A stretch of DNA of 64,000 bases. Origin: Hydrolagus colliei (lineage: Eukaryota). The notes beneath the pieces were generated by a model. That model saw nothing but the letters and a program-made list of their open reading frames with translations. It was not told where the DNA came from and did not search any database. Positions 2,440-49,021 of this stretch are shown here, piece by piece (positions within the stretch are counted from its first letter, which is position 1; each line of letters opens with the position of its first letter). The stretch lies in NCBI GenBank assembly GCA_035084275.1, contig CM068773.1, positions 1,798,001 through 1,862,000 of the forward strand, given 5' to 3'. Made by a program: the position numbers and the translations under genes.

Positions 2440-2524
2440 GGGGAAAGACCCCAAAAGGGAAAGAAAGGATGCGGAAGTATACATAAAAGACACCGTACTC
2501 TTTCGGGTAAAGGAGAACAGAAAA

Positions 2525-3751: not shown

Positions 3752-3760
3752 AAAATGTAA

Positions 3761-6700: not shown

Positions 6701-7165
6701 CACCAGGATGTGGCCTGGATGACGGTCAAGAGAGTTCTTGGACTCAAGAGCTTTCTGACAAGAAGAGGCTTAGTGCAGTCAGAGAGTTGCCCTCGGGAGG
6801 GCTGTGGAGGGAAGGAGAATGAGGAACATCTGTTCCTGCATTGTGCCTTTGCCAAACAGGTGTGGAACAAGACAGAGTGGCTTCTCTCGCGGTTCATCCC
6901 GGGAGTCCCTCTGTCAGCCCACTCGGTGTTGTATGGCCTCTTCCCAGGAACACACGAAGTGACCGACCTACAATGTGCCTGGAGGGTCATCAACTCGGTC
7001 AAGCAGGCCCTATGGGTCTGCCGCAACCGAGAGACCTCCGGACATGGAAATAGGTCAGTGTCGGCCTGTTACAGGAGGGCGATGGTAAGTGTCCGGGAAT
7101 ATGTCATCAGGGACGCCCTGGAGATAGGCTCGGTCGAGGCTAAGGATAGGTGGGGTGTGTTTTAG
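3761..7165 (+). CDS. Tx1 ORF2 (APE endonuclease, RT, Zn-binding motif), 1134 aa
   Basis: APE motifs SLNV, FLQE, NVYAP, GGDFN, SRID, TDH; RT YMDD; no stops. Confidence 0.95.
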   Translation: MALRIGSLNVKSVKNSKRCVATLQGLSRVKADILFLQECWIPHSNSYRTWAKWWDPYGPSVWSGGNDTRASGVAVLLRGKNLTITDYKEVVGGRILVVDVTYNEAPIRLINVYAPSKRKDQVALFRMLPPWLLTPKPVILGGDFNCILERDGRSTRSDEELRAASKLLQKVVADGRLSDVFKAPDDGAPKRFTYSNPSGSVFSRIDFLFVSRRLEVTKTEVRPASLTDHRLLLTNLLVHGSTRRGRGTWKLNVKLLTRKNVEELRKEYRGWKTLRDFCDSSTEWWEMVKSRIKEFFVRKGVQLAKATNRERERLQKELQKLLKQQLEGIEVREAIKEVRDQQGVLLASEASKIFFRSRVRTIEQDEKCTSFFFRKVNRGSSVISGLKDRDDSVCTEQEDMRRIARSFYEDLYREKATESMATRDFLSALTEVVDEGSREHLDRPLSFEELTKTVGSLRTGKTPGSDGLPVELYLVLWDVIGPVLLEVYESMLQEGTMADSMRKGNITLIYKEKGKKADLKNWRPISLLNVDYKILAKVISERMKTVMEQVIHPDQTCAVPGRRISDNLGLLRDTIAYVQERGGKTCLISLDQEKAFDRVSHDYMYEVLAKMGFGQRIRDWVHLLYRDICSAVMVNGNETLPFPVRSGVRQGCPLSPILFVCCIEPFAQAIRREQNIKGVIIPGSQGMQAKVSLYMDDVTVFCSDHRSIESLMGICNLFERASGAKVNRQKSEVMYFGNWQDRAKVPFEVKPEYIKILGIWFGAAGARGKNWEMAIAQIRGRLKQWQERTLSITGKNLVIKCEAISGLLYVAQVWPLTKRSATAVTRAIFRFVWSSGMDRVRRDAMYKTPDKGGKGVPDVARTIMATFVCGCVRVCQEPRYEGTACRYMLGFYLYPVLRRLGLAELPRNAPLGWNVPRYLGEIETFLSENRVDPSEVPRWTPRTVLDIIREREVDETLVGYPPLTVSHIWENVSSPALTNKHQDVAWMTVKRVLGLKSFLTRRGLVQSESCPREGCGGKENEEHLFLHCAFAKQVWNKTEWLLSRFIPGVPLSAHSVLYGLFPGTHEVTDLQCAWRVINSVKQALWVCRNRETSGHGNRSVSACYRRAMVSVREYVIRDALEIGSVEAKDRWGVF

Positions 7166-7727
7166 TATGCCACTGCTTAGAACGTCAGGGATACTATCCG
7201 CAGTGCTTGTGGGGGGACGCTCGACCTGTAACCAGAGAGTGTCCCCAAGTGAAGGGTTTCTTTTGTAGATGCCTCTCCCCATAAAGGGGAGAGCATCGGT
7301 GGGTGTTTTTTTCCCAAATGTCTGTTTCTGTTTTTTTGGCCTACCATCCGGTAAGGAAAGGATGGTGGAGCTGGGATTAGCCCCTTTGTAACTGCTCCCT
7401 GTAAAAAAAGGCAGCAGTGCAGAGAAACGAGGAGGCCTGACATAAGGAAATGTGGGGATTAGGCGTTTTTGTGTCGAGAACGACAGGTTTTTTGTTTTTT
7501 TCTCCACAAAGACGGTGGAAGGGTTGGTTTTGTTGGGAGTGGTGATTGGGTTGGTTTTTCTGTTCCGCGTGGGTACTGAGTCAAGGCCGATGCGGAATGT
7601 CACGGGAAAAAGGATTTAGGCGATTTAGATGTCACGGGGAAGGTTTAAAAAAAAACAAATCTATATGTTTTTAACAAAAAAATAAATATATTTGTTTAAT
7701 AAAAAAATAAAAAAAATAAAAAAAAAA

Positions 7728-7742
7728 TTGTGCCTTAGAGTG
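7728..7742 (+). repeat. Target-site sequence between copies 2 and 3 (15 bp, TTGTGCCTTAGAGTG)
   Basis: Identical to 14496-14510 and 21330-21344. Confidence 0.9.
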
Positions 7743-7932
7743 GAATCGAGCAGAGAGAGCTACGGACGGTGTGAGTATTGGTTTGTTTGTGGTGGACGCG
7801 GCAGGAGAGTTTGGTTTGAATTATTGTTTATTTTGGGGCTAAGAGAGAGTAGGTGGTTTTGTTGGGTTTGTGGTGGTGTGGGGGGGTGATTCCCTTCTTC
7901 CTTCTTCCTGGCGAGGGGCTTTGGGCCCGGCC

Positions 7933-10515
7933 ATGGGAAGAAAGAACAAGGAAATGAAGGGGAAAAAAGAGGCGGAGGGCGAGAGCAGTTTGGAAAAAGG
8001 AGAGGCAATGGAGAACTCTAGTGGGAGAGTGCAGAAGGAGAGAACAGAGAGCAGAGAGAAGGGGGACAGCAGGGGAGAGGGGGGAGAGGGAGGCAATGAA
8101 AGAAGAGGGAGAGAAATCAAACGAGGATAGAGAACAGGAGGGAAGGAGGCAAGGGAGAGTGGGGAAAAGGGGGAGGAGGTGGGGGTCAAGCCAGTAGTTA
8201 AGGAGGGGAAAACCCTGGGGCAACAGGTCAGGTCGAAATCCGTGGGGGGTTTCAGCGAGGCCGGTGCGGGAAGCCTGTTTGGGGGGGTGAGAAGGCAGTT
8301 ACTGGCGGTGGGAAGCCATGTTGGGGGGGAGAGAAGCGGGGAGGCAGCAACGGCGGGAAGCCGAGTGGCCGTGGTAGGAAGCAGTGGGGATAAGGAGACA
8401 AGGCCTATACCGGCGACGGGAAGCCGTGCGGCCGTGGTGGGAGGCCGTGGGGATAAGGAGTCAAAGCCTACCCCGGCGACGGGAAGCCGTAAGGCCGGGG
8501 TGGGAGGCCGTGTGGGTAAGGAGACAAGGCCTCTACCGGCGGCGCGAAGCTGTAGTGGGGGGGAGAGAAGCGGGGAGGCGGCTAAGGCAGGAAGCCGTGA
8601 GGGGGGGGTGGCGGAGAGAAACGGGGAGGCAGCAGCGGCGGGAAGCCGGGGGGGAAACGAGACAAGACCGGTACCGGCGGCGGGAAGAAGTAACGCGGTG
8701 GCGGGAAGCGGTGAGGCCGGGGTGGGTAACCGGGAGCCAGGAGCAAGAGGTCGGGAGGTAGCGGCGGGAAGCCGGAAAGAAGAGAATGAAGTTTGTGAGG
8801 CCGCGGCGGGAAGCGGTGAGAGACAAACGAGCGGAACCGTGGAGGTAAGCCACGAAACCACGGGGGGGTCCCGGGAGGCTGCACAGGCAGGAGTAGGGAC
8901 ACAAAAAGGCGCAGAGAGCGAAGCGAGGAAGGCTGAGAGGGAAGAGAAGACTAGAGACGGAGAGACCAGGGAGAGCAGAGGGGGGAGAACCCCCAGCACC
9001 GAGGCCGGAGGAGAGGCAGGGAGGAAAGAGCCCAGCCCCCCGGAAATGACGGAGGCGGGGCCAAAGAAGGCAGGAGAGGGAGGACCGGAAGTAGTAGCTC
9101 CCCCTAGTGGGGAGAAGGCTTCCACAAGTCAGGGAAAGGCAGGCCCCATAACTTATGCATCAGCGGTGGCGGCAAAAAAGGGGGGCCCAAAGGAAGACCC
9201 AAAGGGGAAAGACCCCAAAAGGGAAAGAAAGGATGCGGAAGTATACATAAAAGACACCGTACTCTTTCGGGTAAAGGAGAACAGAAAAATGGATAGGAAA
9301 ACCTTTATAAGGGAAGTACTGATCCAAATATGCGGAAGCACCAAGGAAAAAATGAGGTGCGTTTACGAGGACGGGGAAAAGAGAAGGTACGAGGTCACAT
9401 GTACCTCGTACGACGAGGCAGTGAAACTGAAAACAGTGGCACTGCAGAACCAGGGGAATGAACTGATGTCAGCCTATGAGGTGACAACGGCATTCCAAGA
9501 AAGACAGAGGCAGGAGAGGAGAGCCGTGGTTAGAATGAGCGACCCGCAAGTGCCGGCGTCGGAAATCAGGTTATATCTTAACAGGCAGTGTGAGGAGATC
9601 CAGTCGATCTCCGAAATACTGGAAGACGGGATCTGGACATCCGAATGGGAAGTCCTTCTGAAATTGGGGAGGAAAGGAGAGGGTAATGTGGTACATATCC
9701 TCTCCCGTTTCACCATTGGGAGTTTCAGGGGAACTATTTTTTACCCTGGACAACCCCGAGCATGCCTAAGATGTGGGCAAGTGGGGCATTACGTGGCAGC
9801 CTGCACACAAACAATGTGCTGGAACTGCAAGGGACTGGGACATGTGGCTAAGGAGTGCACATTGGGTAAGAGATGTGACCTATGTGGAGAAACAGGTCAC
9901 CTCTACCGCACGTGCCCACAAAGAAGGGGGTCTAAAATAATGCAAAGCCGGGAGGTTGGGAGACAGGAAGGGAGAAAGGAGTCAGGGGAAGGGAAAGGAC
10001 AGGACGAGGAACTGGGTGGGGAAGTTTTGGGGGGGGTAGAGATACCCTTGGAGAGGAGGGAGGGTGAGTCAGGACGCACCGGTGGGGAGGAAATGGACAC
10101 TTTGGACAATTCCAAACGGGACAGAGAAACCTGGCAGGTAGTCGGGAAAAGTAGCCGGAAAAAAAAGGGGATACAACTCAAAAGAAGCGGCTATGATAGT
10201 GATAGTGACGGAGGAAAGAGGAGGGAGAAAGGAGGGAGAAAGGAGGAAGGAACCCCTGCCCCCCCCCCAAAAAGGCAGCTGATGGAGGTGGTGGAGGTAG
10301 TGGAAAAAACCTCAAAGAAAGGGAAAGAGACTAAAGAGACAGAAAAAGGAGAAGAACTTGGGAGGACCCCTGAACCTGAACCCGAAGCAGGGAAGACGCC
10401 GGAGGAGACGGAAAAGAGGACAAACAACCCAACCAAGACGGGAGACAACCCCGGAGGAGATGGAGAGGAAAAAGGACTGGAACAGATGGAAGAGGGGGGA
10501 AACGGGCGAGTATAA
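7933..10515 (+). pseudogene. Tx1 ORF1 with premature TAG at 8128-8130
   Basis: GCCATGG start at 7933; GGATAG here versus GGGGAG in copy 4; otherwise colinear with the copy 4 ORF1. Confidence 0.88.
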
Positions 10516-10524
10516 AAAATGTAA

Positions 10525-13500
10525 ATGGCACTGCGGATAGGTTCCCTGAACGTTAAGAGCGTTAAAAATTCCAAGCGTTGCGTAGCGACGCTTCAGGGCC
10601 TATCCAGAGTCAAGGCCGATATTCTGTTTCTGCAGGAGTGCTGGATTCCACACTCCAACAGTTACAGAACTTGGGCAAAGTGGTGGGACCCCTACGGACC
10701 CTCTGTGTGGTCAGGGGGAAATGACACCCGGGCATCGGGTGTGGCGGTCCTACTGAGAGGGAAAAACCTCACCATCACCGACTATAAGGAGGTGGTGGGG
10801 GGCAGAATCCTTGTGGTGGATGTGACGTACAATGAAGCCCCGATTAGGCTCATTAATGTGTACGCTCCATCAAAGAGGAAGGACCAGGTGGCCCTTTTCC
10901 GGATGCTACCTCCCTGGCTGCTTACACCCAAACCAGTCATCCTGGGAGGAGATTTTAATTGTATTCTGGAGAGAGACGGGAGATCAACCAGATCTGATGG
11001 GGAGTTAAGGGCTGCGTCCAAGCTGCTCCAAAAAGTGGTTGCAGATGGACGTTTGAGTGACGTTTTCAAGGCTCCAGATGATGGGGCCCCCAAACGATTC
11101 ACCTATTCTAACCCCAGTGGGTCGGTCTTCTCACGAATAGATTTTCTATTCGTATCGAGAAGACTAGAAGTGACTAAGACTGAAGTGAGGCCGGCGTCCC
11201 TTACCGACCATCGCCTCCTGCTGACGAACTTACTAGTTCACGGAAGCACGAGGAGGGGTCGAGGGACGTGGAAGCTGAACGTAAAGCTTTTGACCCGTAA
11301 GAATGTAGAGGAGTTGCGGAAGGAGTACCGAGGGTGGAAAACCTTGAGGGACTTCTGTGACTCCTCTACAGAATGGTGGGAAATGGTGAAGAGTAGAATC
11401 AAAGAATTCTTTGTCCGAAAAGGGGTTCAATTGGCAAAGGCCACGAACCGGGAAAGAGAGAGACTGCAGAAGGAGTTGCAAAAGCTCCTAAAGCAGCAGC
11501 TAGAAGGTATAGAGGTTAGGGAGGCAATTAAAGAGGTGAGAGACCAGCAAGGAGTGCTGCTCGCCTCGGAAGCCTCCAAGATCTTTTTCCGCTCCAGAGT
11601 GCGCACGATAGAACAAGACGAGAAGTGTACTAGCTTCTTCTTCCGGAAAGTGAACAGAGGTAGCTCTGTGATTTCCGGGTTGAAGGATAGAGACGACTCT
11701 GTGTGCACAGAACAGGAAGACATGAGGAGGATCGCAAGATCCTTCTATGAGGACCTGTACCGCGAGAAAGCCACGGAGAGCATGGCCACTCGGGATTTTC
11801 TCTCTGCCCTCACCGAAGTGGTGGACGAGGGGAGTCGAGAACACCTGGATCGGCCGCTCTCGTTTGAAGAGCTGACCAAGACGGTAGGTTCCCTCAGGAC
11901 AGGTAAGACCCCGGGGAGCGATGGCCTCCCGGTGGAACTGTACTTAGTCCTGTGGGACGTGATCGGACCGGTCCTCCTGGAAGTGTACGAGAGTATGCTT
12001 CAAGAAGGAACCATGGCAGACTCGATGAGGAAAGGTAACATCACCTTGATCTATAAAGAGAAAGGCAAGAAGGCGGATTTAAAGAACTGGAGACCTATAT
12101 CTCTATTAAACGTAGACTATAAGATCTTAGCAAAGGTGATCTCAGAGAGGATGAAGACTGTCATGGAGCAGGTAATTCACCCCGATCAGACCTGCGCGGT
12201 GCCAGGCCGGAGGATCTCTGACAACCTTGGGTTGTTAAGGGATACCATCGCCTACGTGCAGGAGAGAGGGGGGAAGACCTGCCTCATCAGTCTGGACCAA
12301 GAGAAAGCTTTTGACCGAGTATCTCATGACTATATGTATGAGGTACTTGCCAAAATGGGTTTCGGACAAAGAATTCGCGATTGGGTCCACCTGCTCTACA
12401 GAGATATCTGCAGTGCAGTGATGGTTAATGGGAACGAAACGCTGCCCTTCCCCGTCAGGTCGGGAGTAAGACAGGGGTGCCCCCTCTCCCCTATCCTGTT
12501 TGTCTGTTGCATCGAGCCCTTTGCACAGGCAATCAGGAGGGAGCAGAACATCAAAGGCGTCATCATCCCGGGCAGCCAAGGCATGCAAGCCAAGGTGTCC
12601 TTGTATATGGATGATGTTACGGTCTTTTGCTCAGATCACCGATCGATTGAGAGCCTGATGGGTATCTGCAATCTGTTTGAACGGGCTTCGGGTGCCAAAG
12701 TGAATCGCCAAAAAAGTGAGGTGATGTACTTTGGCAACTGGCAAGACCGGGCGAAGGTACCTTTTGAGGTAAAACCAGAGTACATTAAAATCTTAGGCAT
12801 CTGGTTTGGGGCCGCTGGGGCAAGGGGGAAGAACTGGGAGATGGCAATAGCGCAAATTAGGGGACGGTTGAAGCAGTGGCAGGAACGCACGCTTTCAATC
12901 ACTGGGAAGAACCTGGTGATTAAGTGTGAGGCGATCTCTGGATTACTGTACGTGGCGCAAGTTTGGCCCTTGACCAAACGCAGCGCCACCGCAGTCACCA
13001 GAGCTATCTTTAGGTTTGTCTGGAGCTCTGGGATGGATCGTGTCCGCAGGGACGCCATGTACAAGACCCCAGACAAAGGAGGGAAGGGTGTCCCTGATGT
13101 AGCCAGGACTATCATGGCCACCTTTGTGTGTGGCTGCGTGAGGGTCTGCCAGGAGCCAAGATATGAAGGCACTGCGTGCAGATATATGCTGGGCTTCTAT
13201 CTGTACCCAGTGCTAAGAAGGTTAGGTTTGGCTGAGCTGCCACGGAACGCCCCTCTGGGTTGGAATGTCCCGAGATACCTGGGGGAGATCGAGACATTCC
13301 TATCCGAGAACAGGGTGGATCCCTCTGAAGTTCCCAGGTGGACACCACGGACGGTGTTAGACATCATCCGAGAGAGAGAGGTGGACGAAACTTTGGTAGG
13401 GTACCCTCCGTTGACCGTTAGTCACATCTGGGAGAACGTTTCATCCCCAGCTCTGACTAACAAACACCAGGATGTGGCCTGGATGACGGTCAAGAGAGTT

Positions 13501-13929
13501 CTTGGACTCAAGAGCTTTCTGACAAGAAGAGGCTTAGTGCAGTCAGAGAGTTGCCCTCGGGAGGGCTGTGGAGGGAAGGAGAATGAGGAACATCTGTTCC
13601 TGCATTGTGCCTTTGCCAAACAGGTGTGGAACAAGACAGAGTGGCTTCTCTCGCGGTTCATCCCGGGAGTCCCTCTGTCAGCCCACTCGGTGTTGTATGG
13701 CCTCTTCCCAGGAACACACGAAGTGACCGACCTACAATGTGCCTGGAGGGTCATCAACTCGGTCAAGCAGGCCCTATGGGTCTGCCGCAACCGAGAGACC
13801 TCCGGACATGGAAATAGGTCAGTGTCGGCCTGTTACAGGAGGGCGATGGTAAGTGTCCGGGAATATGTCATCAGGGACGCCCTGGAGATAGGTTCAGTCG
13901 AGGCTAAGGATAGGTGGGGTGTGTTTTAG
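10525..13929 (+). CDS. Tx1 ORF2 (APE-RT), 1134 aa
   Basis: Same motifs as copy 2; intact. Confidence 0.95.
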   Translation: MALRIGSLNVKSVKNSKRCVATLQGLSRVKADILFLQECWIPHSNSYRTWAKWWDPYGPSVWSGGNDTRASGVAVLLRGKNLTITDYKEVVGGRILVVDVTYNEAPIRLINVYAPSKRKDQVALFRMLPPWLLTPKPVILGGDFNCILERDGRSTRSDGELRAASKLLQKVVADGRLSDVFKAPDDGAPKRFTYSNPSGSVFSRIDFLFVSRRLEVTKTEVRPASLTDHRLLLTNLLVHGSTRRGRGTWKLNVKLLTRKNVEELRKEYRGWKTLRDFCDSSTEWWEMVKSRIKEFFVRKGVQLAKATNRERERLQKELQKLLKQQLEGIEVREAIKEVRDQQGVLLASEASKIFFRSRVRTIEQDEKCTSFFFRKVNRGSSVISGLKDRDDSVCTEQEDMRRIARSFYEDLYREKATESMATRDFLSALTEVVDEGSREHLDRPLSFEELTKTVGSLRTGKTPGSDGLPVELYLVLWDVIGPVLLEVYESMLQEGTMADSMRKGNITLIYKEKGKKADLKNWRPISLLNVDYKILAKVISERMKTVMEQVIHPDQTCAVPGRRISDNLGLLRDTIAYVQERGGKTCLISLDQEKAFDRVSHDYMYEVLAKMGFGQRIRDWVHLLYRDICSAVMVNGNETLPFPVRSGVRQGCPLSPILFVCCIEPFAQAIRREQNIKGVIIPGSQGMQAKVSLYMDDVTVFCSDHRSIESLMGICNLFERASGAKVNRQKSEVMYFGNWQDRAKVPFEVKPEYIKILGIWFGAAGARGKNWEMAIAQIRGRLKQWQERTLSITGKNLVIKCEAISGLLYVAQVWPLTKRSATAVTRAIFRFVWSSGMDRVRRDAMYKTPDKGGKGVPDVARTIMATFVCGCVRVCQEPRYEGTACRYMLGFYLYPVLRRLGLAELPRNAPLGWNVPRYLGEIETFLSENRVDPSEVPRWTPRTVLDIIREREVDETLVGYPPLTVSHIWENVSSPALTNKHQDVAWMTVKRVLGLKSFLTRRGLVQSESCPREGCGGKENEEHLFLHCAFAKQVWNKTEWLLSRFIPGVPLSAHSVLYGLFPGTHEVTDLQCAWRVINSVKQALWVCRNRETSGHGNRSVSACYRRAMVSVREYVIRDALEIGSVEAKDRWGVF

Positions 13930-14480
13930 TATGCCACTGCTTAGAACGTCAGGGATACTATCCGCAGTGCTTGTGGGGGGACGCTCGACCTGTAACCAGA
14001 GAGTGTCCCCAAGTGAAGGGTTTCTTTTGTAGATGCCTCTCCCCATAAAGGGGAGAGCATCGGTGGGTGTGTTTTTTTCCCAAATGTCTGTTTCTGTTTT
14101 TTTTGGCCTACCATCCGGTAAGGAAAGGATGGTGGAGCTGGGATTAGCCCCTTTGTAACTGCTCCCTGTAAAAAAAGGCAGCAGTGCAGAGAAACGAGGA
14201 GGCCTGACATAAGGAAATGTGGGGATTAGGCGTTTTTGTGTCGAGAACGACAGGTTTTTTGTTTTTTTCTCCACAAAGACGGTGGAAGGGTTGGTTTTGT
14301 TGGGAGTGGTGATTGGGTTGGTTTTTCTGTTCCGCGTGGTTACTGAGTCAAGGCCGATGCGGAATGTCACGGGAAAAAGGATTTAGGCGATTTAGATGTC
14401 ACGGGGAAGGTTTAAAAAAACAAATCTATATGTTTTTAACAAAAAATAAATATATTTGTTTAAAAAAAAAAAAAAAAAAA

Positions 14481-14510
14481 TGCAGAGGAAGTAATTTGTG
14501 CCTTAGAGTG
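14481..14510 (+). repeat. Target-site sequence between copies 3 and 4 (30 bp, TGCAGAGGAAGTAATTTGTGCCTTAGAGTG)
   Basis: Last 19 bp identical to 21326-21344. Confidence 0.9.
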
Positions 14511-14700
14511 GAATCGAGCAGAGAGAGCTACGGACGGTGTGAGTATTGGTTTGTTTGTGGTGGACGCGGCAGGAGAGTTTGGTTTGAATTATTGTTTATT
14601 TTGGGGCTAAGAGAGAGTAGGTGGTTTTGTTGGGTTTGTGGTGGTGTGGGGGGGTGATTCCCTTCTTCCTTCTTCCTGGCGAGGGGCTTTGGGCCCGGCC

Positions 14701-17358
14701 ATGGGAAGAAAGAACAAGGAAATGAAGGGGAAAAAAGAGGCGGAGGGCGAGAGCAGTTTGGAAAAAGGAGAGGCAATGGAGAACTCTAGTGGGAGAGTGC
14801 AGAAGGAGAGAACAGAGAGCAGAGAGAAGGGGGACAGCAGGGGAGAGGGGGGAGAGGGAGGCAATGAAAGAAGAGGGAGAGAAATCAAACGAGGGGAGAG
14901 AACAGGAGGGAAGGAGGCAAGGGAGAGTGGGGAAAAGGGGGAGGAGGTGGGGGTCAAGCCAGTAGTTAAGGAGGGGAAAACCCTGGGGCAACAGGTCAGG
15001 TCGAAATCCGTGGGGGGTTTCAGCGAGGCCGGTGCGGGAAGCCTGTTTGGGGGGGTGAGAAGGCAGTTACTGGCGGTGGGAAGCCATGTTGGGGGGGAGA
15101 GAAGCGGGGAGGCAGCAACGGCGGGAAGCCGAGTGGCCGTGGTAGGAAGCAGTGGGGATAAGGAGACAAGGCCTATACCGGCGACGGGAAGCCGTGCGGC
15201 CGTGGTGGGAGGCCGTGGGGACAAGGAGACAAGGCCTATACCGGCGACGGGAAGCCGTGTGGCCGTGGTGGGAGGCCGTGGGGATAAGGAGTCAAAGCCT
15301 ACCCCGGCGACGGAAAGCCGTAAGGCCGGGGTGGGAGGCCGTGTGGGTAAGGCGACAAGGCCTCTACCGGCGGCGCGAAGCTGTAGTGGGGGGGAGAGAA
15401 GCGGGGAGGCGGCTAAGGCAGGAAGCCGTGAGGGGGGGGTGGCGGAGAGAAACGGGGAGGCAGCAGCGGCGGGAAGCCGGGGGGGAAACGAGACAAGACC
15501 GGTACCGGCGGCGGGAAGAAGTAACGCGGTGGCGGGAAGCGGTGAGGCCGGGGTGGGTAACCGGGAGCCAGGAGCAAGAGGTCGGGAGGTAGCGGCGGGA
15601 AGCCGGAAAGAAGAGAATGAAGTTTGTGAGGCCGCGGCGGGAAGCGGTGAGAGACAAACGAGCGGAACCGTGGAGGTAAGCCACGAAACCACGGGGGGGT
15701 CCCGGGAGGCTGCACAGGCAGGAGTAGGGACACAAAAAGGCGCAGAGAGCGAAGCGAGGAAGGCTGAGAGGGTGGAGAAGACTAGAGACGGAGAGACCAG
15801 GGAGAGCAGAGGGGGGAGAACCCCCAGCACCGAGGCCGGAGGAGAGGCAGGGAGGAAAGAGCCCAGCCCCCCGGAAATGACGGAGGCGGGGCCAAAGAAG
15901 GCAGCAGAGGGAGGACCGGAAGTAGTAGCTCCCCCTAGTGGGGAGAAGGCTTCCACAAGTCAGGGAAAGGCAGGCCCCATAACTTATGCATCAGCGGTGG
16001 CGGCAAAAAAGGGGGGCCCAAAGGAAGACCCAAAGGGGAAAGACCCCAAAAGGGAAAGAAAGGATGCGGAAGTATACATAAAAGACACCGTACTCTTTCG
16101 GGTAAAGGAGAACAGAAAAATGGATAGGAAAACCTTTATAAGGGAAGTACTGATCCAAATATGCGGAAGCACCAAGGAAAAAATGAGGTGCGTTTACGAG
16201 GACGGGGAAAAGAGAAGGTACGAGGTCACATGTACCTCGTACGACGAGGCAGTGAAACTGAAAACAGTGGCACTGCAGAACCAGGGGAATGAACTGATGT
16301 CAGCCTATGAGGTGACAACGGCATTCCAAGAAAGACAGAGGCAGGAGAGGAGAGCCGTGGTTAGAATGAGCGACCCGCAAGTGCCGGCGTCGGAAATCAG
16401 GTTATATCTTAACAGGCAGTGTGAGGAGATCCAGTCGATCTCCGAAATACTGGAAGACGGGATCTGGACATCCGAATGGGAAGTCCTTCTGAAATTGGGG
16501 AGGAAAGGAGAGGGTAATGTGGTACATATCCCCTCCCGTTTCACCATTGGGAGTTTCAGGGGAACTATTTTTTACCCTGGACAACCCCGAGCATGCCTAA
16601 GATGTGGGCAAGTGGGGCATTACGTGGCAGCCTGCACACAAACAATGTGCTGGAACTGCAAGGGACTGGGACATGTGGCTAAGGAGTGCACATTGGGTAA
16701 GAGATGTGACCTATGTGGAGAAACAGGTCACCTCTACCGCACGTGCCCACAAAGAAGGGGGTCTAAAATAATGCAAAGCCGGGAGGTTGGGAGACAGGAA
16801 GGGAGAAAGGAGTCAGGGGAAGGGAAAGGACAGGACGAGGAACTGGGTGGGGAAGTTTTGGGGGGGGTAGAGATACCCTTGGAGAGGAGGGAGTGTGAGT
16901 CAGGACGCACCGGTGGGGAGGAAATGGACACTTTGGACAATTCCAAACGGGACAGAGAAACCTGGCAGGTAGTCGGGAAAAGTAGCCGGAAAAAAAAGGG
17001 GATACAACTCAAAAGAAGCGGCTATGATAGTGATAGTGACGGAGGAAAGAGGAGGGAGAAAGGAGGGAGAAAGGAGGGAGAAAGGAGGAAGGAACCCCTG
17101 CCCCCCCCCCCAAAAAGGCAGCTGATGGAGGTGGTGGAGGTAGTGGAAAAAACCTCAAAGAAAGGGAAAGAGACTAAAGAGACAGAAAAAGGAGAAGAAC
17201 TTGGGAGGACCCCTGAACCTGAACCCGAAGCAGGGAAGACGCCGGAGGAGACGGAAAAGAGGACAAACAACCCAACCAAGACGGGAGACAACCCCGGAGG
17301 AGATGGAGAGGAAAAAGGACTGGAACAGATGGAAGAGGGGGGAAACGGGCGAGTATAA
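14701..17358 (+). CDS. Tx1 ORF1 (low-complexity N-terminus, YASAV motif, 3x CCHC knuckle; ZCCHC3-like architecture)
   Basis: ATG in GCCATGG context at 14701; open to TAA at 17358. Confidence 0.9.
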   Translation: MGRKNKEMKGKKEAEGESSLEKGEAMENSSGRVQKERTESREKGDSRGEGGEGGNERRGREIKRGERTGGKEARESGEKGEEVGVKPVVKEGKTLGQQVRSKSVGGFSEAGAGSLFGGVRRQLLAVGSHVGGERSGEAATAGSRVAVVGSSGDKETRPIPATGSRAAVVGGRGDKETRPIPATGSRVAVVGGRGDKESKPTPATESRKAGVGGRVGKATRPLPAARSCSGGERSGEAAKAGSREGGVAERNGEAAAAGSRGGNETRPVPAAGRSNAVAGSGEAGVGNREPGARGREVAAGSRKEENEVCEAAAGSGERQTSGTVEVSHETTGGSREAAQAGVGTQKGAESEARKAERVEKTRDGETRESRGGRTPSTEAGGEAGRKEPSPPEMTEAGPKKAAEGGPEVVAPPSGEKASTSQGKAGPITYASAVAAKKGGPKEDPKGKDPKRERKDAEVYIKDTVLFRVKENRKMDRKTFIREVLIQICGSTKEKMRCVYEDGEKRRYEVTCTSYDEAVKLKTVALQNQGNELMSAYEVTTAFQERQRQERRAVVRMSDPQVPASEIRLYLNRQCEEIQSISEILEDGIWTSEWEVLLKLGRKGEGNVVHIPSRFTIGSFRGTIFYPGQPRACLRCGQVGHYVAACTQTMCWNCKGLGHVAKECTLGKRCDLCGETGHLYRTCPQRRGSKIMQSREVGRQEGRKESGEGKGQDEELGGEVLGGVEIPLERRECESGRTGGEEMDTLDNSKRDRETWQVVGKSSRKKKGIQLKRSGYDSDSDGGKRREKGGRKEGERRKEPLPPPPKRQLMEVVEVVEKTSKKGKETKETEKGEELGRTPEPEPEAGKTPEETEKRTNNPTKTGDNPGGDGEEKGLEQMEEGGNGRV

Positions 17359-17367
17359 AAAATGTAA

Positions 17368-20300
17368 ATGGCACTGCGGATAGGTTCCCTGAACGTTAAG
17401 AGCGTTAAAAATTCCAAGCGTTGCGTAGCGACGCTTCAGGGCCTATCCAGAGTCAAGGCCGATATTCTGTTTCTGCAGGAGTGCTGGATTCCACACTCCA
17501 ACAGTTACAGAACTTGGGCAAAGTGGTGGGACCCCTACGGACCCTCTGTGTGGTCAGGGGGAAATGACACCCGGGCATCGGGTGTGGCGGTCCTACTGAG
17601 AGGGAAAAACCTCACCATCACCGACTATAAGGAGGTGGTGGGGGGCAGAATCCTTGTGGTGGATGTGACGTACAATGAAGCCCCGATTAGGCTCATTAAT
17701 GTGTACGCTCCATCAAAGAGGAAGGACCAGGTGGCCCTTTTCCGGATGCTACCTCCCTGGCTGCTTACACCCAAACCAGTCATCCTGGGAGGAGATTTTA
17801 ATTGTATTCTGGAGAGAGACGGGAGATCAACCAGATCTGATGGGGAGTTAAGGGCTGCGTCCAAGCTGCTCCAAAAAGTGGTTGCAGATGGACGTTTGAG
17901 TGACGTTTTCAAGGCTCCAGATGATGGGGCCCCCAAACGATTCACCTATTCTAACCCCAGTGGGTCGGTCTTCTCACGAATAGATTTTCTATTCGTATCG
18001 AGAAGACTAGAAGTGACTAAGACTGAAGTGAGGCCGGCGTCCCTTACCGACCATCGCCTCCTGCTGACGAACTTACTAGTTGACGGAAGCACGAGGAGGG
18101 GTCGAGGGACGTGGAAGCTGAACGTAAAGCTTTTGACCCGTAAGAATGTAGAGGAGTTGCGGAAGGAGTACCGAGGGTGGAAAACCTTGAGGGACTTCTG
18201 TGACTCCTCTACAGAATGGTGGGAAATGGTGAAGAGTAGAATCAAAGAATTCTTTGTCCGAAAAGGGGTTCAATTGGCAAAGGCCACGAACCGGGAAAGA
18301 GAGAGACTGCAGAAGGAGTTGCAAAAGCTCCTAAAGCAGCAGCTAGAAGGTATAGAGGTTAGGGAGGCAATTAAAGAGGTGAGAGACCAGCAAGGAGTGC
18401 TGCTCGCCTCGGAAGCCTCCAAGATCTTTTTCCGCTCCAGAGTGCGCACGATAGAACAAGACGAGAAGTGTACTAGCTTCTTCTTCCGGAAAGTGAACAG
18501 AGGTAGCTCTGTGATTTCCGGGTTGAAGGATAGAGACGACTCTGTGTGCACAGAACAGGAAGACATGAGGAGGATCGCAAGATCCTTCTATGAGGACCTG
18601 TACCGCGAGAAAGCCACGGAGAGCATGGCCACTCGGGATTTTCTCTCTGCCCTCACCGAAGTGGTGGACGAGGGGAGTCGAGAACACCTGGATCGGCCGC
18701 TCTCGTTTGAAGAGCTGACCAAGACGGTAGGTTCCCTCAGGACAGGTAAGACCCCGGGGAGCGATGGCCTCCCGGTGGAACTGTACTTAGTCCTGTGGGA
18801 CGTGATCGGACCGGTCCTCCTGGAAGTGTACGAGAGTATGCTTCAAGAAGGAACCATGGCAGACTCGATGAGGAAAGGTAACATCACCTTGATCTATAAA
18901 GAGAAAGGCAAGAAGGCGGATTTAAAGAACTGGAGACCTATATCTCTATTAAACGTAGACTATAAGATCTTAGCAAAGGTGATCTCAGAGAGGATGAAGA
19001 CTGTCATGGAGCAGGTAATTCACCCCGATCAGACCTGCGCGGTGCCAGGCCGGAGGATCTCTGACAACCTTGGGTTGTTAAGGGATACCATCGCCTACGT
19101 GCAGGAGAGAGGGGGGAAGACCTGCCTCATCAGTCTGGACCAAGAGAAAGCTTTTGACCGAGTATCTCATGACTATATGTATGAGGTACTTGCCAAAATG
19201 GGTTTCGGACAAAGAATTCGCGATTGGGTCCACCTGCTCTACAGAGATATCTGCAGTGCAGTGATGGTTAATGGGAACGAAACGCTGCCCTTCCCCGTCA
19301 GGTCGGGAGTAAGACAGGGGTGCCCCCTCTCCCCTATCCTGTTTGTCTGTTGCATCGAGCCCTTTGCACAGGCAATCAGGAGGGAGCAGAACATCAAAGG
19401 CGTCATCATCCCGGGCAGCCAAGGCATGCAAGCCAAGGTGTCCTTGTATATGGATGATGTTACGGTCTTTTGCTCAGATCACCGATCGATTGAGAGCCTG
19501 ATGGGTATCTGCAATCTGTTTGAACGGGCTTCGGGTGCCAAAGTGAATCGCCAAAAAAGTGAGGTGATGTATTTTGGCAACTGGCAAGACCGGGCGAAGG
19601 TACCTTTTGAGGTAAAACCAGAGTACATTAAAATCTTAGGCATCTGGTTTGGGGCCGCTGGGGCAAGGGGGAAGAACTGGGAGATGGCAATAGCGCAAAT
19701 TAGGGGACGGTTGAAGCAGTGGCAGGAACGCACGCTTTCAATCACTGGGAAGAACCTGGTGATTAAGTGTGAGGCGATCTCTGGATTACTGTACGTGGCG
19801 CAAGTTTGGCCCTTGACCAAACGCAGCGCCACCGCAGTCACCAGAGCTATCTTTAGGTTTGTCTGGAGCTCTGGGATGGATCGTGTCCGCAGGGACGCCA
19901 TGTACAAGACCCCAGACAAAGGAGGGAAGGGTGTCCCTGATGTAGCCAGGACTATCATGGCCACCTTTGTGTGTGGCTGCGTGAGGGTCTGCCAGGAGCC
20001 AAGATATGAAGGCACTGCGTGCAGATATATGCTGGGCTTCTATCTGTACCCAGTGCTAAGAAGGTTAGGTTTGGCTGAGCTGCCACGGAACGCCCCTCTG
20101 GGTTGGAATGTCCCGAGATACCTGGGGGAGATCGAGACATTCCTATCCGAGAACAGGGTGGATCCCTCTGAAGTTCCCAGGTGGACACCACGGACGGTGT
20201 TAGACATCATCCGAGAGAGAGAGGTGGACGAAACTTTGGTAGGGTACCCTCCGTTGACCGTTAGTCACATCTGGGAGAACGTTTCATCCCCAGCTCTGAC

Positions 20301-20772
20301 TAACAAACACCAGGATGTGGCCTGGATGACGGTCAAGAGAGTTCTTGGACTCAAGAGCTTTCTGACAAGAAGAGGCTTAGTGCAGTCAGAGAGTTGCCCT
20401 CGGGAGGGCTGTGGAGGGAAGGAGAATGAGGAACATCTGTTCCTGCATTGTGCCTTTGCCAAACAGGTGTGGAACAAGACAGAGTGGCTTCTCTCGCGGT
20501 TCATCCCGGGAGTCCCTCTGTCAGCCCACTCGGTGTTGTATGGCCTCTTCCCAGGAACACACGAAGTGACCGACCTACAATGTGCCTGGAGGGTCATCAA
20601 CTCGGTCAAGCAGGCCCTATGGGTCTGCCGCAACCGAGAGACCTCCGGACATGGAAATAGGTCAGTGTCGGCCTGTTACAGGAGGGCGATGGTAAGTGTC
20701 CGGGAATATGTCATCAGGGACGCCCTGGAGATAGGCTCGGTCGAGGCTAAGGATAGGTGGGGTGTGTTTTAG
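17368..20772 (+). CDS. Tx1 ORF2 (APE-RT), 1134 aa
   Basis: Intact; differs from the other copies by 1-2 aa. Confidence 0.95.
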   Translation: MALRIGSLNVKSVKNSKRCVATLQGLSRVKADILFLQECWIPHSNSYRTWAKWWDPYGPSVWSGGNDTRASGVAVLLRGKNLTITDYKEVVGGRILVVDVTYNEAPIRLINVYAPSKRKDQVALFRMLPPWLLTPKPVILGGDFNCILERDGRSTRSDGELRAASKLLQKVVADGRLSDVFKAPDDGAPKRFTYSNPSGSVFSRIDFLFVSRRLEVTKTEVRPASLTDHRLLLTNLLVDGSTRRGRGTWKLNVKLLTRKNVEELRKEYRGWKTLRDFCDSSTEWWEMVKSRIKEFFVRKGVQLAKATNRERERLQKELQKLLKQQLEGIEVREAIKEVRDQQGVLLASEASKIFFRSRVRTIEQDEKCTSFFFRKVNRGSSVISGLKDRDDSVCTEQEDMRRIARSFYEDLYREKATESMATRDFLSALTEVVDEGSREHLDRPLSFEELTKTVGSLRTGKTPGSDGLPVELYLVLWDVIGPVLLEVYESMLQEGTMADSMRKGNITLIYKEKGKKADLKNWRPISLLNVDYKILAKVISERMKTVMEQVIHPDQTCAVPGRRISDNLGLLRDTIAYVQERGGKTCLISLDQEKAFDRVSHDYMYEVLAKMGFGQRIRDWVHLLYRDICSAVMVNGNETLPFPVRSGVRQGCPLSPILFVCCIEPFAQAIRREQNIKGVIIPGSQGMQAKVSLYMDDVTVFCSDHRSIESLMGICNLFERASGAKVNRQKSEVMYFGNWQDRAKVPFEVKPEYIKILGIWFGAAGARGKNWEMAIAQIRGRLKQWQERTLSITGKNLVIKCEAISGLLYVAQVWPLTKRSATAVTRAIFRFVWSSGMDRVRRDAMYKTPDKGGKGVPDVARTIMATFVCGCVRVCQEPRYEGTACRYMLGFYLYPVLRRLGLAELPRNAPLGWNVPRYLGEIETFLSENRVDPSEVPRWTPRTVLDIIREREVDETLVGYPPLTVSHIWENVSSPALTNKHQDVAWMTVKRVLGLKSFLTRRGLVQSESCPREGCGGKENEEHLFLHCAFAKQVWNKTEWLLSRFIPGVPLSAHSVLYGLFPGTHEVTDLQCAWRVINSVKQALWVCRNRETSGHGNRSVSACYRRAMVSVREYVIRDALEIGSVEAKDRWGVF

Positions 20773-21325
20773 TATGCCACTGCTTAGAACGTCAGGGATA
20801 CTATCCGCAGTGCTTGTGGGGGGACGCTCGACCTGTAACCAGAGAGTGTCCCCAAGTGAAGGGTTTCTTTTGTAGATGCCTCTCCCCATAAAGGGGAGAG
20901 CATCGGTGGGTGTGTTTTTTTCCCAAATGTCTGTTTCTGTTTTTTTGGCCTACCATCCGGTAAGGAAAGGATGGTGGAGCTGGGATTAGCCCCTTTGTAA
21001 CTGCTCCCTGTAAAAAAAGGCAGCAGTGCAGAGAAACGAGGAGGCCTGACATAAGGAAATGTGGGGATTAGGCGTTTTTGTGTCGAGAACGACAGGTTTT
21101 TTGTTTTTTTCTCCACAAAGACGGTGGAAGGGTTGGTTTTGTTGGGAGTGGTGATTGGGTTGGTTTTTCTGTTCCGCGTGGGTACTGAGTCAAGGCCGAT
21201 GCGGAATGTCACGGGAAAAAGGATTTAGGCGATTTAGATGTCACGGGGAAGGTTTTAAAAAAAAACAAATCTATATGTTTTTAACAAAAAAATAAATATA
21301 TTTGTTTAAAAAAAAAAAATAATAA

Positions 21326-24213
21326 TAATTTGTGCCTTAGAGTGCATGTATGTAAATGCACGAAGTTTGAGAAATAAAATTGGTGAGCTGCAGGCTCAGG
21401 TTGCTGCGAAGCGATATGATGTTATAGCAGTAACAGAGACTTGGCTCCAGCATGGGCAGGAATGGGAGTTGAACATTCCTGGTTATAATGTATTCAGGAG
21501 GGATAGAGAAGGGAGAAAAGGGGGCGGGGTGGCAATTTTAGTTAAGGACTCAGTGACTGCCTTAGAAAGGAACGAGGTGGAAGAAGGACTAAAAACCGAA
21601 TCTATCTGGTTAGAATTGAGGAATAAAAAAGGTGCAGTTACACTGTTAGGGGTATACTATAGACCACCAAATAGTGGGGAGGAGATAGACAAGCAGATCT
21701 GCAAGCGTATCACGGAGAAATGCAGAGCTAATAGAGTAGTGATAATGGGTGACTTCAACTATCCCAACATAGACTGGCAGAATAGTAGAGTAAAGGGCAA
21801 GGAGGGAGAAGAATTCCTGAAGTGTGTGCAGGACAACTTTCTTGATCAGTATGTTTCCAGTCCAACGAGGAAAGAAGCATTGCTGGATCTAGTTTTGGGA
21901 AATGAGGTAGGGCAAGTTCAACAGGTTTCTGTAGGTGAGCATCTAGGGAATAGTGACCACAATATCGTTAGATTCAGAATAGTTATGGAAAGGGATAAGG
22001 AACGATCACAGGTGAGGACACTCAACTGGAAAAGGGCTAATTTCAATGAGTTGAGGTGGGACCTAGCCAAGGTGGATTGGAAAGAAAAATTGGCAGGTAA
22101 GACAACTAACGAGCAGTGGGCAGCGTTCAAAGAGGAGATAGTTCAGGCACAGGTCAAAAGCATCCCCACAAAGGTGAAATGTAAGGCATCCAAACCTCCC
22201 TGGATGACTAAGGAAATCGGGGCCAAAATCAAACAAAAAAAAGAGGCTTATGATAAGTGTCAGGCTCAAAATTCAGAAGGGAACCAAGCAGAATATAGGA
22301 AGTGTAGGATAGATCTAAAAAAGGAAGTTAGAGGGGCAAAGAGACTGCATGAAAAACAATTAGCGAGTAAGATTAAGGGGAACCCTAAGGTTTTTTACCA
22401 ACATATTAAGAGTAAAAGGTTGGTCAAGGAGAGGGTGGGGCCAATTAGGGACCTAGGAGGAAATCTCATTGTGGAGGCAGAGGGCATGGCTGATGTACTG
22501 AATGAGTACTTCGCCTCTGTCTTCACAAAAGAAAATGATACAGCCAATGCCATGGTATTAGAGGAGAGGGTAGGAGAAATGAATAGAATAATTATAACCA
22601 GAGAGGAAGTGCTAAAAAGGTTGACGTCGCTCAAGGTGGATAAGTCACCTGGTCCGGATGGGATGCACCATAGGTTACTAAGTGAGGCACGGGAGCAAAT
22701 AGCAGGGACTCTGGCCACGATCTTTCAATCTTCCTTGGACACAGGGGTCGTGCCAGAGGACTGGAGGATAGCTAATGTTACTCCCTTGTATAAAAAGGGG
22801 CAGAAGGACAAGCCTGGTAACTACAGACCAGTCAGTCTAACGTCGGTAGTGGGCAAAATTCTAGAGTCCATAATCAGGGACAAGGTAGATCTTCACTTAG
22901 AAAGATATAGGCTAATAAAGGACAGTCAACATGGATTTGTTAAAGGCAAATCTTGCCTTACAAATCTGATAGAATTTTTTGATGAGGTAACGGAATGGGT
23001 GGATAATGGTAGCGCAGTTGATGTAGTTTACATGGACTTTCAAAAGGCATTTGACAAAGTGCCACATGAGAGACTTATTATGAAATTAAAGGCCCATGGC
23101 GTAAAAGGGACAGTGGCAGCGTGGATTCACAACTGGCTGCGAGACAGAAAGCAGAGAGTTGTAGTGAGCGGCTGTTTTTCAGATTGGAGGGAAGTGAGCA
23201 GTGGTGTGCCACAGGGATCGGTTTTGGGACCATTGCTGTTTGTAATCTACATCAATGATCTGGACTTGGGTGTACGGAGTACAGTTTCCAAGTTTGCAGA
23301 TGACACTAAGTTAGGGAGAATAGTAAACAGTGAGGAGGATAGTAGCCATCTGCAAGAGGATATAGACAAATTGGTAAAGTGGGCAGACACATGGCAGATG
23401 AAGTTTAATGCAGAGAAGTGTGAGGTGATGCATTTTGGGAGAAGAAATGAAGGGAGGCAATATAGGCTAGATAGTACAATTTTAAATGGTGTAAAGGAAC
23501 AGAGAGACCTGGGGATTTGTGTTAGTGACTCGTTGAAGGTGGCAGGACAGGTAGACAAGGCTGTTAAGAAGGCATATGGGATACTAGGCTTTATAAATAG
23601 GGGTATAGAGTACAAAAGTCAGGAAGTGCTGACTAACCTCTATAGGACTTTGGTGAGGCCTCAGCTGGAATACTGTGTTCAATTCTGGTCACCACACTAC
23701 AGAAAGGATGTGAAGGCATTGGAAAGGGTACAACGAAGATTTACTAGGATGGTGCCAGGATTGAGGTACTTCAGCTATGAGGAGAGGCTAGATAGGCTAG
23801 GGTTATTCTCTCTGGAGCAGAGAAGATTGAGGGGAGACCTAATAGAGGTTTATAAGATCATGAGGGGTTTCGACAGAGCAAATAGAGAAAAACTATTTCC
23901 ACTCGTGGGTGAATCTGTGACTCGTGGTCACAGATTTAAAATAGTTTCAAGGCGCAGTAGAGGGGAGCTGAGGAGAAATTTTTTCACTCAGCGAGTTGTT
24001 CGAATCTGGAATGCATTGCCTGAAAAGTTGGTGGAGGCTGATTCGATAACAACTTTTAAAAGGGAATTAGATCTTTATTTAGGGAGAACGGGTCTATTAG
24101 GCTATGGGGAGCGGGCAGGGCAGTGGGATTGAATCGCTCTTTTCAAAGAGCCGGCACAGACTAGATGGGTCGAATGGCCTCCTTTTGTGCCGTAAAATTC
24201 TATGATTCTATGA
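21326..24213 (+). mobile_element. CR1 LINE, 3' part downstream of the Tx1 array
   Basis: CR1-type ORF2, short 3' UTR and (ATTCTATG)2 terminal repeat at 24197-24212. Confidence 0.95.
21346..24132 (+). CDS. CR1 ORF2 (APE-RT), 928 aa, intact
   Basis: MYVNARSL, VTETWL, MGDFNYP, SDH, YMDFQKAFDKVPH, GVPQGSVLGP, FADD, LEYCVQFWSP motifs typical of CR1. Confidence 0.95.
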   Translation: MYVNARSLRNKIGELQAQVAAKRYDVIAVTETWLQHGQEWELNIPGYNVFRRDREGRKGGGVAILVKDSVTALERNEVEEGLKTESIWLELRNKKGAVTLLGVYYRPPNSGEEIDKQICKRITEKCRANRVVIMGDFNYPNIDWQNSRVKGKEGEEFLKCVQDNFLDQYVSSPTRKEALLDLVLGNEVGQVQQVSVGEHLGNSDHNIVRFRIVMERDKERSQVRTLNWKRANFNELRWDLAKVDWKEKLAGKTTNEQWAAFKEEIVQAQVKSIPTKVKCKASKPPWMTKEIGAKIKQKKEAYDKCQAQNSEGNQAEYRKCRIDLKKEVRGAKRLHEKQLASKIKGNPKVFYQHIKSKRLVKERVGPIRDLGGNLIVEAEGMADVLNEYFASVFTKENDTANAMVLEERVGEMNRIIITREEVLKRLTSLKVDKSPGPDGMHHRLLSEAREQIAGTLATIFQSSLDTGVVPEDWRIANVTPLYKKGQKDKPGNYRPVSLTSVVGKILESIIRDKVDLHLERYRLIKDSQHGFVKGKSCLTNLIEFFDEVTEWVDNGSAVDVVYMDFQKAFDKVPHERLIMKLKAHGVKGTVAAWIHNWLRDRKQRVVVSGCFSDWREVSSGVPQGSVLGPLLFVIYINDLDLGVRSTVSKFADDTKLGRIVNSEEDSSHLQEDIDKLVKWADTWQMKFNAEKCEVMHFGRRNEGRQYRLDSTILNGVKEQRDLGICVSDSLKVAGQVDKAVKKAYGILGFINRGIEYKSQEVLTNLYRTLVRPQLEYCVQFWSPHYRKDVKALERVQRRFTRMVPGLRYFSYEERLDRLGLFSLEQRRLRGDLIEVYKIMRGFDRANREKLFPLVGESVTRGHRFKIVSRRSRGELRRNFFTQRVVRIWNALPEKLVEADSITTFKRELDLYLGRTGLLGYGERAGQWD

Positions 24214-48880: not shown

Positions 48881-49021
48881 TTTGGAAGGAAGATCAACAT
48901 GCTTTGTGAGTGCCCACTCACAAAGTGGTAAAACAAAATGACCAAACAGAAGCTGTGTGATGGAATGTGTACTTGTTTAATAGAAAATTAGGAAGAAATA
49001 ACCAAACATTTTATCGTGCAG

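Follow-up and report, generated by a model that had tools for sequence, protein, structure and literature searches.

The window analyzed here, a 64,000-nucleotide stretch of the Hydrolagus colliei genome (contig CM068773.1; G000:C40:1798001-1862000), holds part of an array of a Tx1-type long interspersed element (LINE) that lies inside one copy of another LINE, CR1. The array runs on upstream to eight units in total, and copies 1 to 4 of the window correspond to units 5 to 8. Comparison with the other copies of the family indicated that this stack probably grew from right to left, each newcomer being placed just 5' of a resident copy and taking the 5' end of that resident, with copy 4 as the founder. 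Stacks of the family were found at many unrelated sites, and their left unit was usually the younger one and often had the truncation point of its right neighbor. Several left units were chimeric, their 5' 40–300 bp being those of the old neighbor and their 3' part that of a younger lineage.

The 48 exact young 3' ends of the family lie at 30 loci, all of which were examined together with four others, and searches with older motifs added five stacks, from 21 further loci of which three were duplicates. Loci recovered twice were counted once (C30 = C417; L113, L115 and L118 = L112, L114 and L110). The same 5' truncation start was observed in four units at C1d (6444), six at C29 (6545) and three at C48 (5865), and pairs with the same 5' start were present at C1b, C6b, C15c, C26b, C417, L096 and L102. 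Read from left to right, the identity to a young copy was 99.1, 99.4, 94.3 and 92.7% at C1d, 98.2, 94.4 and 83.3% at C417, 99.7 and 87.2% at C15b, and 99.1 and 92.2% at C26b. The left unit was the younger, that is, closer to the young reference, in 13 of the 16 informative stacks (p 0.011), after C15c, L102, C1a and L087 had been set aside as uninformative for polarity. Three of these 13 were found with old- or middle-aged motifs; among the stacks from the older-motif searches, three were left-younger, L102 was marginal and L087 was not comparable. Three stacks (C23, C265, and C6a) speak against this polarity, since their more divergent unit is on the left. The left units of C23 and C265 belong to one internally deleted lineage and each carries the 5' variants of its own right neighbor, so that the reversal at these two loci still fits a newcomer on the left.

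Duplication-separated units added at the 5' side, as in growth of the R1 type, were thus found in 13 of the 16 stacks, the evidence being indirect for units 7 and 8. A constant spacer with a fixed first nick at one site was not found, the spacers ranging from 0 to 156 bp at unrelated sites, nor were the identical junctions and the greatest likeness between neighbors that satellite-like unequal exchange would leave. Target sequence was absent from the junction of units 5/6 and from junctions at C40c, C1a, C6a, C3a, C15b, C417, L102 and L107, which may correspond to nicks inside the resident.

The chimeric composition of the left units was analyzed in seven left–right pairs by comparing the identity before and after a switch point. 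The left unit of L107 matched its right neighbor at 297/299 positions and then at 716/846, and 13 of the 39 shared alleles were found at no other panel locus. At L086 the values were 135/139 and then 922/1072, with 11 of the 16 shared alleles being unique. Shorter tracts were observed at C48 (68/68, then 86/94), C29 (40/40, then 148/176) and C1b (53/53, then 155/160), and the left unit of C15c contains 2.1 kb that is absent from its right neighbor. Full-length neighbors at C15a and C40c have in common the locus-specific 5' variants 68T, 72A and 131G, and 18T, 1084C and 1310A, respectively, and differ further 3'. The near-identical 5' tract followed by a remainder that is 15% diverged indicates a late newcomer, which inserted well after the resident, was copied from a template produced at another locus and acquired its 5' end at the site of insertion. 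Other pairs weigh against this interpretation: none of the shared 5' alleles at C26b, C29 and L096 is locus-unique, C1d, C6b and C15b show no resident tract, and the left unit of C2c and C6a is without the 5' end of the resident.

Regarding the identity of the element, the second open reading frame (ORF2) contains the domains PF03372, PF00078 and PF13966 (APE, reverse transcriptase and the zf-RVT zinc motif), and ORF1 contains PF00098 (CCHC) and PF23058 (RNA-binding). CCHC knuckles together with an RNA-binding domain are typical of the ORF1 of the Tx1 clade. In a pairwise comparison, ORF2 matched Xenopus Tx1 ORF2 with an E value of 8.8e-91 and 29% identity, and the poly(A) tail and the target duplication are those expected for a LINE of this clade. 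Several copies retain both ORFs open. A non-autonomous lineage with a common internal deletion (element 2856-6269) was also observed, at G000:C23:17517568 and C265:2364167. The host element carries LINE domains, as detected by a domain search, and is a young CR1-type element, which we take to be CR1. Its 5' untranslated region (UTR) consists of a 324-bp TATA-containing monomer in tandem, with 31 units at the C2 locus (G000:C2:67127079-67136823; also C18:21408623 onward), an arrangement that recalls the mouse L1 monomers. The first ~31 nt of the Tx1 element match the CR1 5' UTR just after the TATA box, where older copies sit inserted, and judging by this match the head of the element is likely a captured read-in leader. 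The suggestion in the preliminary description that the RNA may carry upstream target sequence from read-in transcription is supported by this match for at least one occasion. A search for a 5' ribozyme in 14380-14900 matched no ribozyme family and gave three weak microRNA matches only.

The distribution of the family over its possible CR1 targets was also analyzed. The genome contains 730 exact matches to the empty-type CR1 target, and 20 units at the CR1 ORF2 site are found in only nine CR1 copies (8, 3, 2 and 2 units and five singles), two of which are paralogues. As 16 or fewer distinct sites in 20 random draws from 730 would have a probability of 2.5e-5, this crowding indicates that the siting is not random. 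All nine of these loci start full length with the same 5' junction. By comparison, none of the 17 loci with a 5'-truncated leftmost unit is at the CR1 ORF2 site, although several truncated stacks also lie in CR1 5' UTRs; 11 of them are stacks, five are solo copies and one is unclear, C6a having been set aside in this count. Founder sites had a median duplication of 16.5 bp and a consensus of ~2.2 bits over 34 columns (22 sites, three of them mis-called by the script). The 13–17 bp pieces of the array would therefore represent the normal stagger, partly hidden by the poly(A), and the enzyme does not appear to be strongly sequence-specific at those sites. The pattern of sequence-specific Tx1 elements (Keno, Tx1-Mar type), with most insertions at one target, was not found.

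Some individual insertions differed from this general picture. A 5'-truncated copy was detected in a U2 small nuclear RNA gene (L046:7850-8039, G000:C13 ~6.072 Mb; Rfam 156.8 bits); its duplication spans approximately nucleotides 23–39, ending where the Keno/Utopia flank begins, and its 3' flank starts near nucleotide 23. A solo truncated copy with a 16-bp duplication lies in the tRNA-like head of a short interspersed element (flank of the L019 ~2600-2700 region, G000:C35 ~4.396 Mb). Mixed junctions were found at C36a, C265 and C50 (L031, L033-L034, and L011-L012), either with the 5' end in the CR1 5' UTR and the 3' end at the ORF2 site, in which case CR1 ORF1 is lacking, or with the reverse arrangement. 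Either annealing of the cDNA 1.1 kb upstream or recombination between copies would produce such junctions.

Within the array, the leftmost junction is native, and the pieces at the following ones measure 14, 156, 13, 14, 0, 13, 28, and 17 bp toward the right. The duplications of 15, 30 and 19 bp previously described for the window (13, 28 and 17 without the TG shared by element and target) were confirmed, as was their common end at one base and the location of their variable edge on the priming side. The 30 bp between copies 3 and 4 are native CR1, as had been proposed, and match the left flank of the array, which lies outside the window. The 5' junction had been considered exact; this fails at the junction of copies 1 and 2 (2439/2440), which has no target sequence and in which the poly(A) joins element position ~1529 after AAA. 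Copy 1 was likely inserted inside unit 6 at this position. Contigs from two sequencing samples (two studies) bridge a junction of poly(A), target and element head, so that this type of junction is not an assembly artefact; the array itself is spanned by no contig. The inner junction pieces probably show no more than a portion of a longer duplication, the rest of which extends into the resident copy.

The extra TAATAA noticed before the duplication of copy 4 is present, and it is not unique to this copy, being also found at C40c and C45. Its attribution to slippage during priming was reinforced, since the reiteration occurred in three of the four junctions starting at -17 and in none of the 14 others with a target piece (Fisher p 0.005; one ambiguous junction was left out). 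The three copies with the TAA reiteration are not close relatives. Separate insertions, rather than unequal crossing-over, were also upheld for the array: junctions and tails differ, and the variants of unit 5 are common with the copy on contig C2 and not with its neighbors.

The order of these insertions is a different matter. Assuming that a new unit duplicates only what lies to its left, 1008 of the 40320 orders of eight units are allowed, with strict right-to-left growth among them, and three orders fit the window (3-2-4, 3-4-2, and 4-3-2). The order can therefore not be read from the junction lengths as had been claimed; what they do establish is that copy 3 precedes copy 2. The nonsense change in ORF1 of copy 3, adduced in favor of its being the founder, is real and has no dating value, as copies 3 and 4 have six private substitutions each. 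No support was found for copy 3 as founder followed by copy 4 downstream, and polarity points instead to 4-3-2-1. The private substitutions of units 1 to 8 number 0, 0, 2, 3, 0, 1, 6, and 6 (one-sided exact p 0.028), and the ancestral allele 2388T is present, among the array units, in unit 8 only. The -17 junction type was found in four of 10 outermost and in none of 11 inner junctions (p 0.035), and the solo copy C45 has the same -17 junction with the same TAATAA as copy 4. Since the genome-wide polarity, the founder-type junction and the ancestral allele all point to the order 4-3-2-1, we consider copy 4 (unit 8), and not copy 3, quite likely to be the founder. The alleles of the CR1 flank also bear on the order. 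Only two instances of the -44G/-29G haplotype are present in the genome, one in the left flank of the array and one in the 156-bp piece, and the paralogous CR1 carries -29A. The 28-bp junction, which is also found at C133 and C36a, starts after the A5 run of the -29A allele. These alleles fit the priming of unit 7 at the A5 run before the A>G change and the duplication of 156 bp of local flank by unit 2 after it.

Several observations weigh against copy 4 as founder and against the role given to the resident. Units 7 and 8 tie at six private substitutions, and unit 7 comes first in 630 of the 1008 permitted orders, compared with 126 for unit 8, so that the order of these two units depends on analogy and on two weak markers. 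The -29G allele is common among CR1 copies (G in 288 and A in 421 of 709), and the change at -29 may therefore be an ordinary mutation or the result of CR1 gene conversion. The young copies are too alike to reveal a resident tract between units 7 and 8. Finally, the solo copy C133 has a 28-bp duplication without a resident, and long pieces consequently need no resident.

On the basis of these results, the following mechanism may be proposed. The bottom strand would be nicked near the 5' edge of the resident, mostly 11–17 bp upstream of it and sometimes 28–156 bp upstream or inside the resident. The poly(A) would prime at this nick, and the cDNA would anneal to the homologous top strand of the resident, or to its transcript, thereby starting the second strand. 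The outcome would be a junction variable on the left and fixed on the right, in which the true duplication comprises the flank piece and part of the resident. As a last step, homology of the RNA or cDNA to the resident might bring the complex back to occupied sites, and the CR1 leader on read-in RNA might do likewise at empty CR1 sites; this is the weakest step, and its chances appear about even. More tentatively, and with somewhat less than an even chance in our view, the target preference as a whole may come from homology and not from the endonuclease, the RNA or cDNA finding old copies or leader-matching CR1 and inserting at the 5' edge of the match. It counts against these two proposals that all the evidence on targeting consists of insertion end products.

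The alternative contained in the preliminary description is that copy 3 founded the array, copy 4 took the regenerated downstream site and copy 2 the upstream one, the junction pieces being plain duplications made by a sequence-specific endonuclease. Junction lengths permit this order, copy 3 ties for the most private changes, and the 28-bp duplication on solo copy C133 is in line with it. However, no clear downstream addition was observed among the examined stacks, with 13 of 16 polarized leftward, the junction of copy 4 is of the outermost type, as on C45, and founder sites are without consensus. This alternative, which also leaves the common truncation points and the chimeric 5' ends unexplained, is considered improbable. 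Leftward growth with 5' annealing might, on the other hand, occur without active homing, if insertions fall into open, transcribed hot spots with a regenerated nick site and intermediates beside a resident survive far more often, homology allowing their second strand to start. Many stacks do lie just downstream of the CR1 TATA promoter (C1d, C6b, C417, C15b, L102, L107, C23, and C265), a single 2.4-Mb contig carries 13 of the 48 young 3' ends, and cDNA pairing is the favored route of R2 second-strand priming (PMC13580325). Yet a random insertion within 100 bp of the 5' edge of a resident has a probability of 2e-5 to 2e-4 (for an assumed 100–1000 residents), compared with 11 of 17 truncated loci that are stacked. 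Moreover, ~720 equivalent CR1 sites are empty, and the stacks at C26b, C29, C48, C15c and C1b have no CR1 promoter match in the fetched flank. We regard growth without homing as possible but rather unlikely, and recruitment by homology seems slightly favored over open sites with better survival of intermediates because of these empty sites and of the stacks formed away from CR1 promoters.

The junctions also bear on a tandem duplication at the DNA level, in which unequal exchange, or slippage through the target duplication, would come first and one unit would then undergo gene conversion by younger copies. Most stacks contain junctions of different lengths and different tails, conversion would have no reason to favor the left unit, the common tract is anchored at the 5' edge, and the left unit of C15c has sequence missing from the right one. 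These facts stand against the near identity of units 1 and 2 at both C48 and C1d, the equality of the two junctions and tails of C48, the many variants common to units 2 and 3 of C40b, and the amplification of D. melanogaster R1 arrays in that way (PMC2718515). DNA duplication is disfavored, with a low probability, as a general cause, and is plausible for a few identical pairs. Insertion of a concatemer in a single event, with the reverse transcriptase jumping from the RNA to the next poly(A), would account for the clustering and for target-free junctions such as those of units 5/6 and C40c. This explanation is refuted for the old–young stacks, where neighbors belong to lineages of different age and differ by up to 15–25%, yet have common 5' tracts that are 97–100% identical; in addition, the 156-bp piece bears a locus-private haplotype. 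A concatemer could underlie an occasional young pair, and as an account of the stacks in general it is very improbable.

Other candidate explanations were tried and rejected. Hitchhiking of a CR1-Tx1 composite was discarded because the host CR1s differ in truncation point and haplotype, the 3' junctions differ, and none of the 30 loci with the exact young 3' ends is a composite truncated inside Tx1. Co-conversion of a long stretch of CR1 flank by an RNA leader does not agree with the flanks, which keep their own haplotypes beyond ~-44. The -29G allele in common with C2 was not accepted as proof of leader transfer, given its frequency (288/709) and the junction of unit 5, which implies that the cDNA of this unit may have stopped short of the flank. 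An exchange of CR1 halves at the array locus was also dismissed, as its two halves appear to belong to a single CR1 subfamily. The right flank of the array's CR1, and that of its paralog, has no match to the DNA after the CR1-free duplicate described below.

Table 1. Features of the Tx1-type array and its CR1 host in the window (positions counted from the first nucleotide of the window).
Feature	Position	Strand	Remarks
Copy 1 (unit 5), 3' part and poly(A)	1..2439	+	11-bp insertion and variants 4345 and 5387 common with the copy on contig C2
Copy 2 (unit 6), without first ~1.5 kb, ORF2 intact	2440..7727	+	Tail 7698-7727; left junction without target sequence
Junction piece of copies 2/3, CR1 target 13 bp and shared TG	7728..7742	+	
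Copy 3 (unit 7), full length, ORF1 repeats one 63-bp copy fewer	7743..14480	+	Tail 14462-14480
GG>AT at 8127-8128, giving TAG at 8128-8130 in ORF1 of copy 3	8127..8130	+	Private to copy 3; ORF1 cut to 65 amino acids (aa)
Junction piece of copies 3/4, CR1 28 bp and TG	14481..14510	+	Begins directly after the A5 run in CR1 with -29A
Copy 4 (unit 8), full length, ORF1 and ORF2 open	14511..21319	+	Tail 21308-21319
Element head, match to CR1 5' UTR	14513..14543	+	27/31 identical to C1d flank, just downstream of TATA box
ORF1 of copy 4, 885 aa	14701..17358	+	ZCCHC3-like RNA-binding domain and CCHC knuckles
ORF2 of copy 4, 1134 aa	17368..20772	+	APE endonuclease, reverse transcriptase, zf-RVT
TAATAA, reiterated start of duplication	21320..21325	+	Also present at C40c and C45
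Outer target duplication, 17 bp and TG	21326..21344	+	Type confined to outermost junctions
Host CR1, ORF2 and 3' end	21345..24213	+	Its 5' 1164 bp left of unit 1, G000:C40 ~1765025-1766188

The features of the window are listed in Table 1. The 63-bp tandem repeat of ORF1 (window 15122-15389 and 8354-8558) varies in frame from 3.2 to more than 5 copies among units. At ~17050-17110 in ORF1 of copy 4, insertions of 11 bp and 1 bp offset one another, so that the frame stays open (885 versus 881 aa); these insertions are common to units 5 and 8 and C2, and C133 also reads 885 aa. Further to the right, the DNA upstream of the array's CR1 recurs as a 13-kb segmental duplicate (window 48745-61767; 98.8%) that lacks the CR1; a third paralogue, inverted and near C40:1.946-1.96 Mb, includes the CR1 together with a three-unit stack of its own. 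Window 36065-38526 holds a young CR1 split into two inverted pieces, 97% identical to the host CR1, which resembles a 5' inversion by twin priming, and window 25423-26250 holds an open frame of 275 aa that is gag-like by eye.

These results are relevant to two questions that are still debated, how the 5' end of an APE-type LINE is finished and how its site is picked. The stacks are natural evidence that a resident copy can serve for the completion of a 5' end, and they show that occupied sites are re-used far above chance, in lineages that differ from the young copies by up to 25–30%. A truncation point common to tandem copies is not necessarily a sign of DNA duplication, inner units that look truncated can be remnants of a cut resident, duplication lengths do not give the insertion order, and chimeric 5' ends will distort subfamily trees. 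If homology targeting were true, each stack would be an ordered record of the successive lineages of the family, and the protein might be re-aimed by altering its RNA. As several copies have both ORFs open, the homing idea is testable in an ordinary retrotransposition assay. Taken together, the earlier observation on this array was largely right; the order proposed from it is not established, and its first step was probably reversed.

The joining of new cDNA to a pre-existing copy, or the targeting of such a copy, has precedents in L1 chimeras with endogenous L1 in cultured cells, in the Zepp-into-Zepp insertions of Chlorella and in the tandems formed by recombination of Ty cDNA. These cases are sporadic, telomeric or integrase-independent, and we know of none that is the dominant, age-ordered route of an APE LINE. 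Among non-LTR elements, R1 arrays of Drosophila grow at their 5' side, new copies entering the duplication at the 5' end of the resident, and in melanogaster-type R1 the upstream target on the RNA anneals and produces exact 5' junctions (PMC2718515). CR1 ORF1 sequence, if carried by present-day transcripts of the Tx1-type element, would account in the same manner for the exact junctions at empty CR1 sites. The stacks described here have in common with R1 this insertion into the duplication at the resident's 5' end. R1 is confined to a single 28S site, where the first nick is fixed and the second varies; here the first nick varies and the 5' junction is fixed, stacks form at consensus-free sites, and truncated 5' ends are inherited. 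In R2, ~28 nt of upstream target on the RNA likewise let the cDNA anneal upstream for second-strand priming (PMC13580325); R2, however, has a restriction-like nuclease and a ribozyme, whereas no ribozyme family was matched here and the cDNA likely anneals to an old copy of the element itself.

The crocodilian Tx1-Mar and SINEU-3 elements are also Tx1-clade elements, or are driven by them, with a preference for another transposon as target, and their tandem copies sandwich a duplication and have been read as sequential insertions (PMC4494074). In contrast with the CR1 of this work, their targets are DNA or LTR (long terminal repeat) transposons, and sections 14 and 15 of that report give no age polarity, common truncation points or chimeric 5' ends, although its supplements may show similar junctions (PMC4494074). 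The double-insertion tandems of Drosophila resemble the present stacks in that one site is hit more than once and a duplication separates the units; the non-LTR dimers among them have distinct 5' truncations, unlike the single truncation point found here (McGurk and Barbash, bioRxiv 10.1101/158386). For Keno, the 3' flank begins at U2 nucleotide 39 (PMC4640811), unlike that of the single U2 copy detected in this genome, which starts near nucleotide 23. Searches of the full-text literature, with subscription papers, Repbase Reports and supplements outside their reach, returned no report of age-ordered LINE stacks with the same truncation, which does not establish their absence from print. Growth at the 5' side (R1) and tandem Tx1-driven SINEU insertions are known, and in the same searches age-ordered stacks at consensus-free sites with inherited truncation points did not come up.

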